A stretch of 41,034 bases of DNA from Candidatus Microgenomates bacterium (GCA_012797935.1 JAAZOC010000052.1:1-41034), one strand, 5' to 3'. Positions 22,847 to 26,119 are shown, numbered from the stretch's first letter. Made by a program: numbers and translations. The notes: generated by a model not told the origin, from the sequence alone.

Positions 22847-23872
22847 ATGGAATTAAAAGATTTTGGTAAAAAAAATATATTTATGCCGGATGCAACAAGA
22901 GGTGCTGTTAGATTTTTGACAACTCAACAACTGAAAGATACTGGAACTGAGGCTATAGTTACAAATACTCTTCATTTGATGATTGCTCCTGGAGCTGAAA
23001 AAATGAAAGAATTGGGTGGTATAAAAAAATTAATGAATTGGGACGGAATTGTTTTGACAGATTCAGGTGGTTTCCAGGTGTTTTCATTAATTCATTCTAA
23101 AAAGTGGGAAGGAAAAATTGATGAGAATGGTGCTACTTTCAAATCGCCAAGGGAAGGAAACATTTACACTCTTACACCAGAGACCTCTATCGATATTCAA
23201 ATGTGTATAGGCTCCGATATCTTAGTTACTTTAGATGATTGCAGGAAAAGTGATTTAGATGAATCGGAAGCTAGGGAATCTGTAGATCGAACGGTTGCTT
23301 GGGCGAGAAGATGCAAAGATCATTTTGAGAAAGTATATGGTGGTACTAAGGAAACAGGTAAGTTGTTGAGTTGTGTAGTCCAGGGAGCAAAGTACCCTGA
23401 ATTAAGAAAGGAGTGTGCAAAAGCTTTGGTTGAGATTGGTTTTGATGGGTACAATTTTGGTGGCTTTGTAGTTGATGAAGATGGTGAGCTGGTTTTAGAT
23501 GAAATGCGGGCTGTTATTGAAAATACTCCTGTGGACAAATTTAAATATGCAATGGGAGTTGGCAAGCCAGATGATATACGAAGAGCATCTAAGATTGGGT
23601 ATAGAGTTTTTGATACAGTGCTTGTAACTAGAAATGCTAGACATGGAACTTTGTACTCTTCTGATATTGAAGATGAAGTCTTGAGAATTGGAAATTCAGA
23701 ATATTCCTCAGACCAAAGACCAATCGACTCAAACTGCGATTGCTACACATGCAAAAATCACAGCAGAGCATATGTCCACCATATGTTAAAAGCAGGTGAA
23801 GCTACAGGCATGACACTAGCAACAATCCACAACCTTGCATATTATCAAAAACTTGTACAAGGTCTGTCCTAG
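22847..23872 (+). CDS. tgt: tRNA-guanine (queuine) transglycosylase, C-terminally shortened
   Basis: Contains DSGGFQVFSL. The zinc site CDCYTCKNH...IHNL is present. The last four codons, ggt ctg tcc tag, lie inside the left inverted repeat of the adjacent Y1-transposase cassette. Confidence 0.93.
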   Translation: MELKDFGKKNIFMPDATRGAVRFLTTQQLKDTGTEAIVTNTLHLMIAPGAEKMKELGGIKKLMNWDGIVLTDSGGFQVFSLIHSKKWEGKIDENGATFKSPREGNIYTLTPETSIDIQMCIGSDILVTLDDCRKSDLDESEARESVDRTVAWARRCKDHFEKVYGGTKETGKLLSCVVQGAKYPELRKECAKALVEIGFDGYNFGGFVVDEDGELVLDEMRAVIENTPVDKFKYAMGVGKPDDIRRASKIGYRVFDTVLVTRNARHGTLYSSDIEDEVLRIGNSEYSSDQRPIDSNCDCYTCKNHSRAYVHHMLKAGEATGMTLATIHNLAYYQKLVQGLS

Positions 23873-23884
23873 GTCTGTCCCTAG
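23861..23884. repeat. Left inverted repeat of the Y1-transposase cassette (tandem 12/13-mers ggtctgtcctag + ggtctgtccctag sharing one g)
   Basis: Its reverse complement ctagggacagacctaggacagacc matches 24348-24371 at 20 of 24 positions. The outer 12 nt match perfectly. Confidence 0.85.
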
Positions 23885-24312
23885 TACTTACTCCATGGAT
23901 ATTCCGAAGGCTTTTTGACTAAGCCTTCTACAACGGGATTCTGTTTGATATATTCTTTCGCTCTTAATAGATCTTTTTTCCAATACAGCAGATTCGCATT
24001 ATATCTGCCTTGAAATATATGTCCAACCCTTTGGTATTTACGGTTTACTTGCATTGCGAAGCTTGTTACCACTTTCTGCATATATTTCGAAATCTCGTTT
24101 GGTTGTTTTCCTGTTTTAAGAATTAGGTGAAAATGATTATCCATAATACAAAATGCAATTAGCCGAATATCTGTTTCTTTTATATATTCATATAGTAAAT
24201 GTTTGAAAATATTCTTTTCTGATGAATTCTTTAAAATCGCTTCCTTGTTGTTGCATCTGTTGAATATATGGTAATGAGAATTTTTAATAAAATTTCTACT
24301 TTTTCTTGACAT
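23881..24312 (-). CDS. IS200-like / REP-associated tyrosine (Y1, HUH) transposase
   Basis: HUH motif DNHFHLIL. The C-terminal segment GHIFQGRYNA carries the catalytic-type Tyr. It begins HYHIFNRCN. The stop codon lies within the left IR. Confidence 0.8.
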   Translation of the reverse strand: MSRKSRNFIKNSHYHIFNRCNNKEAILKNSSEKNIFKHLLYEYIKETDIRLIAFCIMDNHFHLILKTGKQPNEISKYMQKVVTSFAMQVNRKYQRVGHIFQGRYNANLLYWKKDLLRAKEYIKQNPVVEGLVKKPSEYPWSKY

Positions 24313-24347
24313 ACGTAAGTTATATTTTGTTGATATTAAATTAAAAT

Positions 24348-24371
24348 TAAGGGACTGATCTAGGACAGACC
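24348..24371. repeat. Right inverted repeat of the Y1-transposase cassette
   Basis: The sequence is taagggactgatctaggacagacc. See the left IR entry for the match. Confidence 0.85.
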
Positions 24372-24381
24372 TGGATTTAGC

Positions 24382-24432
24382 GGATTGAGGAATTGGGTAA
24401 AAAATGATATTATTGGGAAGTCCTATTATTAA
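24382..24432 (+). pseudogene. Possible displaced original 3' end of tgt (16 codons plus TAA)
   Basis: Translates GLRNWVKNDIIGKSYY*. In TGT homologs as I recall them, the helix YYQ.L.. is followed by ..IR..I..G.F, so this fragment would continue ...YYQKLVQ plausibly. Confidence 0.3.
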
Positions 24433-24595
24433 ACACTTTTTAATAAAGAAATACAGTTTTTGTAGAAAAATTTAATATATATGAAAATATATTTAAGTAA
24501 AAATGAAGGTAATTCGTTAAATAGCAGCTATGCGGCTGTTAGTTTTCCAAAAAAGGTTTAAAAGGGGACAGTTTAAATTATTATATAGTTAGGAC

Positions 24596-26119
24596 ATGGA
24601 TACATTATTTGTTATCCTGGTATCAGTCTTGTTAACTGCTTCTGCGGCTTTTCTTTTGCTTAAATTCGTTTTCCACTGGGTAGATATTAAAAATATTCCA
24701 GCTAAGGAAATAGAAGAGGCAGCAAAGAAAATCATGAGAGAAAAGTTTGACACTGCTGAGCAGGAAGTTTTCGAGTTAAAAGAAAGAGAAGAGAAGAGAT
24801 TGAAGGAGATGAGGAGGGAAAGTACTGAGCATGAGGAGATATTGATAGAAAGAGAAAGGAAGCTTAACAAGAGATCTAAGCTTTTGGACGAAAAGAGTGA
24901 AGAATTAGAAGCTCAAGATTCTCAATTAAAAGAGGGTTTTAAAAGATTGGAGAATGAAAGAGTTGAGTTGAAGAAAGCATTAGAAAAAATTTCGGGTCTT
25001 TCAAGAGATGAAGCTAAAGAAAAGTTAATGAAGGAAATAGATCAAGATTTAAGAGAGTATGAAGCTAAGAAGATTAGAGAGGCTGAGAAAAACATCGAAT
25101 CAACGGCGGATGAGCAGGCTCAAAAGATTCTTGTAGAATCAATGCAAAGAGTTGCTACTGATTATGTCGGCGAAACTACTACAAAGGTTATAAAGGTAGA
25201 AGATGATAAGGTTAAGGGTAGAGTTATTGGTAGAGAAGGTCGAAATATTAGATCTTTTGAACAAATAACTGGTGTTGATGTTATTGTTGATGAATCACCA
25301 GATGCTATTGCACTCTCATCTTTTGATCCTTTGAGAAGAGAAATTGCATATGTTGCAATGACAAAATTAATTGCTGACGGCCGTATTCATCCAGGTTCTA
25401 TTGAAGAATCTGTTAGAAAAGCTAAGAATGAAATCTCACAAGAGATTAAGAAAAATGGTCAAATATTGGCAGATGAAGCTGGTTGGCCAGATCTTGATAT
25501 TGGTTTGATGAAGTTAATTGGAAAGATGAAGTATAGAACTAGCTATGGTCAGTCACTTATGTCTCACACAATCGAGGTAATTAGACTTGCAGAAGTACTA
25601 GCTACTGAGATTGGTGCTGATACTCAATTGGCTAAGAGAGCTGCACTTTTACATGATGTTGGTAAAGTTCTTTCACACAAAGTTGATAGTCCTCACCACC
25701 ATATCTCCGGTCAGATTGCTAGAAAATATATGCTTGATGACAAATTGGTCAATGCTATTGAGGCACATCACTTAGATATAGAGCCACAGAGCCCAGAAGC
25801 AGTTGTAGTGTATCTTGCAGATGCAATATCAGGTTCTAGACCTGGAGCAAGAAAAGATAGCTACGAGCAGTATGTACAAAGAATAGAAGGTATCGAAGGA
25901 GCTGCAAAAGAAATAGGTGGCGATAAAGTAGATGAAGTCTTTGCTATCAAAGCTGGAAGAGAAGTAAGAATCATTGTTAAACCTACAATGGTTTCTGATG
26001 ACGAAGCTAAGGTTATGGCAAAAGACATTGCACAGGAAATTGAGAAGAAACAAAATTATCCTGGCAATGTTGAGGTTACTGTTATTAGAGAAACAAGAGC
26101 TGTAGAAGTAGCAAAATAG
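24596..26119 (+). CDS. rny: Ribonuclease Y
   Basis: N-terminal TM helix followed by a long coiled coil. The KH segment is GRVIGREGRNIRSFEQITGVDVIVDE. The HD domain reads LLHDVGK...EAHH. Confidence 0.93.
   Translation: MDTLFVILVSVLLTASAAFLLLKFVFHWVDIKNIPAKEIEEAAKKIMREKFDTAEQEVFELKEREEKRLKEMRRESTEHEEILIERERKLNKRSKLLDEKSEELEAQDSQLKEGFKRLENERVELKKALEKISGLSRDEAKEKLMKEIDQDLREYEAKKIREAEKNIESTADEQAQKILVESMQRVATDYVGETTTKVIKVEDDKVKGRVIGREGRNIRSFEQITGVDVIVDESPDAIALSSFDPLRREIAYVAMTKLIADGRIHPGSIEESVRKAKNEISQEIKKNGQILADEAGWPDLDIGLMKLIGKMKYRTSYGQSLMSHTIEVIRLAEVLATEIGADTQLAKRAALLHDVGKVLSHKVDSPHHHISGQIARKYMLDDKLVNAIEAHHLDIEPQSPEAVVVYLADAISGSRPGARKDSYEQYVQRIEGIEGAAKEIGGDKVDEVFAIKAGREVRIIVKPTMVSDDEAKVMAKDIAQEIEKKQNYPGNVEVTVIRETRAVEVAK

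Follow-up and report, generated by a model that had tools for sequence, protein, structure and literature searches.

A RAYT-type Y1 transposase-like gene framed by inverted cognate repeats at the tgt–rny junction of a Candidatus Dojkabacteria lineage

The tgt–rny junction in the window, by which we mean the whole 41,034-nt stretch of DNA analysed (GCA_012797935.1, JAAZOC010000052.1), most probably carries a domesticated cassette of the RAYT type, similar to TIRYTs/TIRtrons. It consists of a gene for a 143-residue HUH/Y1 enzyme, a putative nuclease–ligase of single-stranded DNA, and inverted cognate repeats of 20–22 nt, fixed between tgt and rny and vertically inherited. The 598-kb assembly comprises 101 contigs with a G+C content of 33%, and its relatives belong to Candidatus Dojkabacteria (CPR/Patescibacteria). 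The fold and motifs of the protein, the copy numbers, the synteny, the selection on the gene and the tie between repeat and gene are all shown here. With an intact gene and its own 20-base inverted repeats in a long-held slot, the cassette adds a clean further case to the domesticated transposase systems already known, rather than a new kind of element.

The left neighbor of the slot, tgt, encodes a queuine tRNA-ribosyltransferase (22847–23872, plus strand; Pfam TGT, 355.6 bits), and the right neighbor, rny, encodes RNase Y (24596–26119, plus strand) with Pfam RNase_Y_N, KH and HD domains. Between them, an intact 143-residue open reading frame on the minus strand (23881–24312), bearing the motifs NHFHLIL and GHIFQGRY, is framed by the left repeat ggtctgtcctaggtctgtccctag (23861–23884) and the right repeat taagggactgatctaggacagacc (24348–24371); repeat, gene and repeat together span about 510 bp. 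Both the sequence and the coordinates of this arrangement agree with the original prediction. A search for inverted repeats returned two arms of 23 nt at 23860–23882 and 24350–24372, complementary at 21 of 23 positions (91%) and separated by a gap of 467 nt. The outer 12-mer GGTCTGTCCTAG, for which a perfect match between the two repeats had been claimed, indeed has exactly two occurrences over the 41 kb of the window, one per strand. At most one mismatch being allowed, 0.07 matches to this 12-mer are expected from shuffled sequences, and two matches were reached in one of 100 shuffles. Read on the minus strand, the 3′-flanking repeat of the Y1 gene (23861–23884) is CTAG-GGACAGACC-TA-GGACAGACC, with the core 20-mer at 23861–23880, and its position and orientation are kept in the orthologous loci. 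Two stop codons fall inside it: the one that ends the Y1 gene (23881–23883), as predicted, and the one that ends tgt (23870–23872), which is transcribed towards the Y1 gene. The 5′-flanking repeat (24350–24372, plus strand) has the core 20-mer GGACTGATCTAGGACAGACC at 24352–24371, inverted with respect to the left copy, and is also kept in orthologs.

A short leader (24313–24349, minus strand) links the 5′ repeat to the ATG of the Y1 gene and bears a TATAAC −10-like box 6 nt before the start codon. A TATAMT-like box recurs 6–9 nt 5′ of the ATG among the orthologs; in the window, a promoter consensus scan did not call the TATAAC box. Because this box lies 6 nt from the ATG, we infer a Y1 promoter here and an mRNA that is probably leaderless or nearly so. 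To the right of the cassette, a promoter-like site of rny (TTGAGG-17-TATTAT with TG; 24385–24413, plus strand) starts 13 nt past the repeat. Its attgagg...gatatcatt motif is kept in relatives with and without the cassette, and the site marks the right-hand boundary of the inserted cassette. An Rfam scan of the window stretch revealed nothing relevant, the single match being far below threshold (E 0.1).

Profile searches assigned the 143-residue protein to the Y1 superfamily (Pfam Y1_Tnp, PF01797; 7.8e-13, 49.1 bits versus a cut-off of 23). Over its full length it scores 79.7 bits against the NCBIfam model REP_Tyr_transpos, which is 0.3 bits short of the equivalog cut-off of 80, and 25.7 bits against the NCBIfam IS200 model, whose cut-off is 55. 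A sequence search of the PDB gave Escherichia coli TnpA_REP (PDB 4ER8) as the best match, with an E-value of 1.9e-4, compared to 0.075 for 2FYX. The HUH motif residues H60-F61-H62 are encoded at 24127–24135 (minus strand), and the presumed catalytic Y121, within a Y-x-x-x-N-P motif that aligns with YIxxNP of E. coli TnpA_REP, at 23950–23952 (minus strand). H60, H62, Y121 and N125 are invariant among 17 aligned homologs and among 15 orthologs. The protein ends 22 residues past Y121, and Y1_Tnp is the only Pfam domain found. An AlphaFold (AF2) model built on 17 homologs has a pLDDT of 93. Searching the PDB with this model using Foldseek revealed 4ER8 as the top fold match, with a TM-score of 0.81 and an RMSD of 2.9 Å, whereas the transposases of IS608, ISDra2 and IS200 gave TM-scores of about 0.61 and RMSDs above 7. 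In sequence and in predicted fold, the Y1 protein is thus nearer to TnpA_REP/RAYT than to IS200. Purifying selection on the gene is strong: comparison with the two nearest orthologs gave dN/dS ratios of 0.034 and 0.046, and an unsaturated pair gave 0.061. A search of its own genome for paralogs, as had been proposed, found none, and the Y1 gene is single-copy.

The recurring unit of the repeats is a 20-mer, GGACNGAYCTAGGNCNGACC, composed of two 9-mer half-sites with a period of 11 nt. The left repeat had earlier been taken for a tandem duplication of a 12-mer; its tandem build holds, and the unit is now refined to this 20-mer. The repeat is better described as two GGNCWGAYC half-sites, each internally dyad-symmetric, with (C)TAG in front. 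The repeats carry no GTAG tag, the tag being CTAG or TAG. As single-stranded DNA, the window repeats have predicted folds of −1.4 to −4.3 kcal/mol, with z-scores no better than −2. Over 102 copies from the genus, a set picked by pattern in which positions 3, 5, 11, 14 and 16 alone are informative, Watson–Crick pairing as expected of a hairpin is found in 22% at positions 3/18 and in 18% at positions 5/16, whereas the direct-repeat register (5 = 16) holds in 75%. A classical REP hairpin was rejected, since the free pairing positions lack covariation in the 102 copies and the direct register fits better. A scan of 23600–24700 revealed no terminator-like site, no stable G+C stem and no T-run, and the single-stranded folds are not above those of shuffled sequences; an intrinsic (bidirectional) terminator was therefore rejected as well. 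The original prediction is corrected in this respect: the repeats are neither classical REP hairpins nor terminators.

Copies of GGACNGAYCTAGGNCNGACC number four in the 598-kb assembly, namely the two flanks and one doublet on contig C55, compared to none for the reversed control. The genome-wide search called for by the original prediction thus brought up two further copies, and more were found in relatives; searches of this genome with the half-site and with three mismatches allowed found no copies beyond these four. The two C55 repeats (1680–1699 and 1786–1805) are direct, 106 bp apart, and lie between the genes for tRNA-Thr and rpmG; the doublet begins 8 nt past tRNA-Thr(GGT) and ends 11 nt before the −35 box of the rpmG promoter. 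It sits at the orthologous site in a related genome (G015), where the repeats are 95% and 85% identical, whereas the identity of the spacers is 0.50 and equals the shuffled level (0.49 ± 0.03). As the repeats are conserved while the spacer is randomised, it is the repeats themselves that are maintained. On account of a gatattccgaa match, which is probably due to chance, the C55 spacer was also considered as the relic of a Y1 gene; this was rejected, as the spacer is at random level against its G015 ortholog. Across genomes of the same genus, the 20-mer pattern (at most one mismatch) has 0–27 copies, with 0–1 for the reversed control. At the level of the family, all four genomes that lack a Y1 gene have no copies, whereas at least one copy is present in 17 of the 21 genomes that have one (one-sided Fisher test, about 0.006, with genomes counted without regard to phylogeny).

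Further Y1 genes in the relatives come with repeats of their own. G019 and G017 carry a second paralog with a separate repeat variant, GGGCAGACCTAGGTCAGACC, on its flanks. Among more distant paralogs, at further Y1 loci in G019, G016, G025 and G037, three of the four tested have their own flanking inverted repeats of 16–28 nt; at another locus, in G041, no flanking inverted repeat of at least 14 nt was found. Three different Y1 paralog families each have their own flanking repeat variant. In addition, gene-less units of 165–205 bp bounded by repeats occur across the relatives. G019 and G017 have dispersed units of about 205 bp, whose inverted ends and leader motif are like those of the cassette of the second paralog, and a conserved unit of about 165 bp occurs in relatives, either singly or in tandem arrays. 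An Rfam scan of the 165-bp units found nothing, and the C55 spacer resembles them in short motifs only. The gene-less units look like internally deleted derivatives mobilised in trans.

Of 61 related genomes, 34 contain Y1 genes, mostly between one and six per genome and divergent from one another, and a cassette of this kind is therefore not unusual in this lineage, contrary to what had been supposed for such a housekeeping-dense region. Orthologs with 51–87% identity occupy the queA–tgt–Y1–rny slot in at least 12 Dojkabacteria genomes, the twelve loci of relatives being placed in four genera by a genome search. Every ortholog, syntenic or not, is flanked by inverted repeats; comparison of the tgt–rny junction, also suggested beforehand, hence found the gene together with its repeats, and not the gene without them. 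The upstream repeat lies 40–50 nt before the ATG (about 90 nt in one locus), and the second copy usually begins at the Y1 stop codon. The Y1-protein tree and the tgt tree have three major clades in common and one weakly supported discordance (L009), and the shared clades are as expected under vertical descent. We conclude that the cassette has been in the tgt–rny slot since before the genera of this Dojkabacteria lineage split; these comparisons point to a cassette fixed between tgt and rny and vertically inherited within this Candidatus Dojkabacteria family.

The left repeat supplies the last three codons and the stop codon of tgt (GGT CTG TCC TAG, 23861–23872). A native tgt tail, I-E-x-L-N... 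up to the stop, is kept in the genomes with an empty slot and in G019, G017 and G008; in G019, the repeat starts 7 nt after the native tgt stop. By contrast, tgt runs in frame into the repeat and ends in ...VQGLS in three genomes, that of the window, G015 and G009, and in other lineages tgt ends at differing points inside the repeat (GLTRV, GLAQVCP and GLTPIRP before the stop). The native tail upstream of the cassette in G019, G017 and G008 indicates that the ancestral cassette lay just downstream of tgt, and the in-frame fusion is better explained by a secondary small deletion in the clade of the window. This deletion joined the 3′ repeat to tgt, whose final three residues and stop codon now come from repeat sequence. 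A truncated tgt whose old tail survives downstream of the cassette was rejected, because the native tail is upstream in these three genomes.

For the mechanism, we propose that the Y1 enzyme may recognise the tandem GGNCWGAYC half-sites and the preceding (C)TAG on DNA that is single-stranded during replication. It would nick and rejoin this DNA via Y121 while the histidines of the HUH motif coordinate the metal, and would thereby mobilise or maintain repeat-bounded segments in trans rather than copy its own gene. In the relatives, mobilisation in trans could have given rise to the dispersed gene-less units of 165–205 bp, the doublets and the arrays, whereas in this genome the repeat population would have shrunk to the two flanks and the one doublet between tRNA-Thr and rpmG.

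The original prediction had left a choice between a domesticated RAYT with its cognate repeats and a very small mobile element. The latter would be an autonomous IS200-like insertion sequence of about 510 bp, with terminal inverted repeats as ends and a strong preference for the tgt–rny spacer, and we consider it unlikely. In its favor, presence and absence alternate at one site among genomes of the same genus. In G005, G013, G020 and G022, the tgt–rny spacer is 226–243 bp long without any repeat remnant, as is the 376-bp spacer of G003, and in some other genomes an unrelated gene occupies the slot. On the tgt tree, empty same-genus slots alternate with filled ones, which requires no fewer than five losses or allele replacements and counts against the domesticated reading. 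So does a second cassette with both repeats at another site in G010, from which it follows that the whole unit moved at least once; G006 has one at a non-syntenic site. The dispersed gene-less derivatives with the same ends in relatives resemble the MITEs of an insertion sequence, and the HUH/Y1 catalytic core with its Y1_Tnp domain, the very small gene and the length of the unit are all shared with IS200. However, the cassette is present as one copy, and neither this genome nor its relatives have near-identical paralogs; in the relatives, Y1 copies within one genome vary greatly in identity to the query. It is syntenic across genera, and its same-slot orthologs have diverged to saturated dS, their trees nonetheless matching the tgt tree. 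The IS200 profile score is well under its cut-off, and the fold is closer to the monomeric TnpA_REP than to IS608, superposing poorly on the IS608/ISDra2 dimer subunits. The ends of IS200/IS605 elements are distinct subterminal hairpins on one strand, whereas those of the cassette are inverted copies of one repeat. The number of copies, the profile score and the structure of the ends thus place the cassette outside IS200, while the single copy, the likeness to TnpA_REP, the purifying selection, the fixed slot and the tree that matches tgt together favor the domesticated RAYT.

It is very improbable that the repeats are mainly cis-elements of the host, such as a bidirectional terminator or a protein-binding site beside promoters, with an incidental link to the Y1 gene. 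Their placement would suit such a role, as the left repeat lies exactly between convergent genes and contains both stops, and 13 nt separate the end of the right repeat from the −35 box of rny, as 11 nt separate that of the second C55 repeat from the −35 box of rpmG; the half-sites are dyad-symmetric and one helical turn apart, and the repeats are conserved next to a randomised spacer. Yet in such compact genomes nearly any intergenic element adjoins a promoter, and the terminator scan was negative for sites, G+C stems and T-runs. The own repeat variant of each of the three Y1 paralog families, together with the lack of repeats in family genomes without Y1 genes, argues against an incidental link. 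With only four repeat copies, the propagation of repeats cannot explain the retention of the gene in this genome. A different possibility concerns the function: the enzyme and its repeats might have been taken over for a role in the host in which repeats are no longer spread, although this appears unlikely too. Such a co-option is suggested by the dN/dS of 0.03–0.06 although just two non-flanking repeats survive in the clade, by the conservation of these two at an orthologous site with a randomised spacer, by repeats at both loci that stop 11–13 nt short of the −35 boxes of the essential genes rny and rpmG, and by the tandem dyad-symmetric 9-mers one helical turn apart, which are operator-like rather than hairpin-like. 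If so, the Y1 protein could bind specific DNA sequences, or nick DNA at them, at promoters or the replication fork.

As a domesticated RAYT-type cassette, the unit finds its closest published category in the TIRtron/TIRYT, because it is flanked by inverted repeats that lack a GTAG hairpin. In TIRtrons, a RAYT-like gene is accompanied by terminal inverted repeats (TIRs) that replace the GTAG REPs (Di Nocera et al. 2013, PMC3733652); the TIRs can make up small families, present as single copies, dimers and clusters, with the motif GGGG[AT][CG]A[CG] (PMC3733652). Similarly, the RAYT-like Y1 gene here has terminal inverted repeats on either side in place of GTAG-tagged REP hairpins, repeat and gene end overlap, and the repeat family is moderately abundant, with singles, dimers and clusters. 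The TIR motif is found exactly, as GGGGACAG, in the second C55 copy (copy b) and in many relatives, but the window flanks match it at only 7 and 6 of 8 positions. TIRYTs were equated with TnpA-Y1 subclass 2.1 by Quentin et al. 2018 (PMC6006769), and TIRtrons/TIRYTs are thought to correspond to this subclass and to RAYT Group 1 of Bertels et al. 2017 (PMC5581495). The proteins of subclass 2.1 are long and have a conserved C-terminal extension similar to HTH/DnaA_C (PMC6006769), whereas the minimal 143-residue protein lacks it; by the published description, it therefore lies outside subclass 2.1. The host differs as well, being a CPR bacterium, and among the papers searched there was no relevant one for REP/RAYT systems in CPR bacteria.

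RAYTs in general are single-copy, stay in the same extragenic space, descend vertically and have cognate flanking repeats (PMC5581495; bioRxiv 10.1101/2021.07.10.451892). REPtrons are represented by E. coli TnpA_REP (RayT/YafM, 4ER8) with REP/BIME and by the RAYT–REPIN systems of Pseudomonas (Nunvar 2010, PMC2817692; Bertels & Rainey 2011, PMC3116915; Messing 2012, PMC3479197). The cassette shares with them the single-copy Y1 gene in a fixed extragenic slot, vertical descent and inverted cognate flanks, and 4ER8 is its best match in both sequence and fold. In both, repeat variants differ from paralog to paralog, and the repeats are missing where the gene family is missing; the flanking repeat is also dispersed extragenically, though with just two non-flanking copies in this genome. 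However, the repeats here are not GTAG-tagged palindromes and have no conserved hairpin, and their four copies (at most 27 by pattern in relatives) compare with hundreds (more than 100) in REPtrons. Likewise, the gene-less units of the relatives, at 165–205 bp and often in direct tandem arrays, differ from typical REPINs of about 100 bp.

Altogether, RAYT/TIRYT-type domesticated transposases and their cognate repeats persist vertically even in CPR genomes of about 0.6 Mb. Several features of this case are of some note: one housekeeping junction keeps the cassette across genera of a lineage with ultra-small genomes, the repeat has a non-hairpin form of tandem half-sites and supplies the end of tgt, and the gene is strongly constrained where its repeat population is nearly extinct. 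For annotation, the Y1 gene should not be called an active IS200 transposase, and the cassette repeat accounts for the odd C-terminus of tgt. With one gene and four sites in this genome, and close relatives that have 0–27 sites and empty slots, the lineage offers a simple natural test case for what RAYTs do for their host.

Besides the cassettes that carry a Y1 transposase gene, the repeat, a 20-mer of two 9-mer half-sites with an 11-nt period, bounds gene-less units in related Dojkabacteria genomes. Units of ~165 bp, occurring singly or as tandem arrays of two to four, are found in G019, G017, G016 and G010 (loci L114:401-900, L115:410-755, L116:444-622, L117:153-332 and L113). Different species share a conserved internal sequence (…ccgtttcctaatccgaagcgtcgtatt.cg…gtaagccgaaatcagaagta…), and a comparison of the unit with Rfam returned no match; the unit may represent a MITE-like element that has been mobilised, or the carrier of a small structured RNA. 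G017, G019, G010 and G022 carry dispersed intergenic units of ~205 bp (L119, L125-L130 and L120) that are bounded on either side by the second repeat variant, one copy inverted relative to the other. The leader motif at their start (gttaatctagatttaat or gttaagaaaattttaat) resembles that of the cassette of paralog-2, the second Y1 gene of G019 and G017 (L118 and L131). The ~205-bp units look like cassette derivatives with an internal deletion.

In cassette copies at non-syntenic sites in G010 (L019:3001-3453) and G006 (L012:1501-1956), the Y1 reading frame runs through the 3' repeat, which adds the encoded tails …WDQTRDRP and …WGQTWDRPK, respectively. Repeat-like 20-mers (GGACTGACCcaGATCTGTCC) lie ~75 nt apart in contig C8 of G009 (L134:189-290), apparently in repetitive and perhaps coding sequence; the repeat may have inserted into a gene here, or the resemblance may be due to chance.

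Outside the window, contig C55 of the source genome (G000) carries a direct doublet of the repeat 20-mer at 1680-1805, between tRNA-Thr(GGT) and rpmG. The doublet is kept at the orthologous site of G015 (L133:284-414), with a spacer of 86-91 nt whose identity is at the random level. A TTGACC-17-TATAAT promoter lies 11 nt past the end of the second C55 copy. In many repeat copies, the ...GACC end is followed after 2-20 nt by a -35 or -10-like box belonging to the adjacent downstream gene, as seen at window positions 24372-24413, at C55:1805-1850 and in L110, L113, L116, L125, L126, L128, L129 and L130. This closeness could reflect an insertion preference, a regulatory role, or merely compact intergenic space.

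The tgt-rny spacer, which holds the Y1 cassette in the window, has other contents elsewhere. In the same-genus genomes G004 (L096), G018 (L102) and G012 (L103), it contains a different gene of ~0.75 kb on the tgt strand, whose product combines a hydrophobic segment at the N terminus with the thioredoxin-like motif PEC(R/K)WCQ. The spacers of G036 and G034 hold further unrelated genes on the strand opposite to tgt. The tgt-rny spacer seems to be a landing place that has been used repeatedly.
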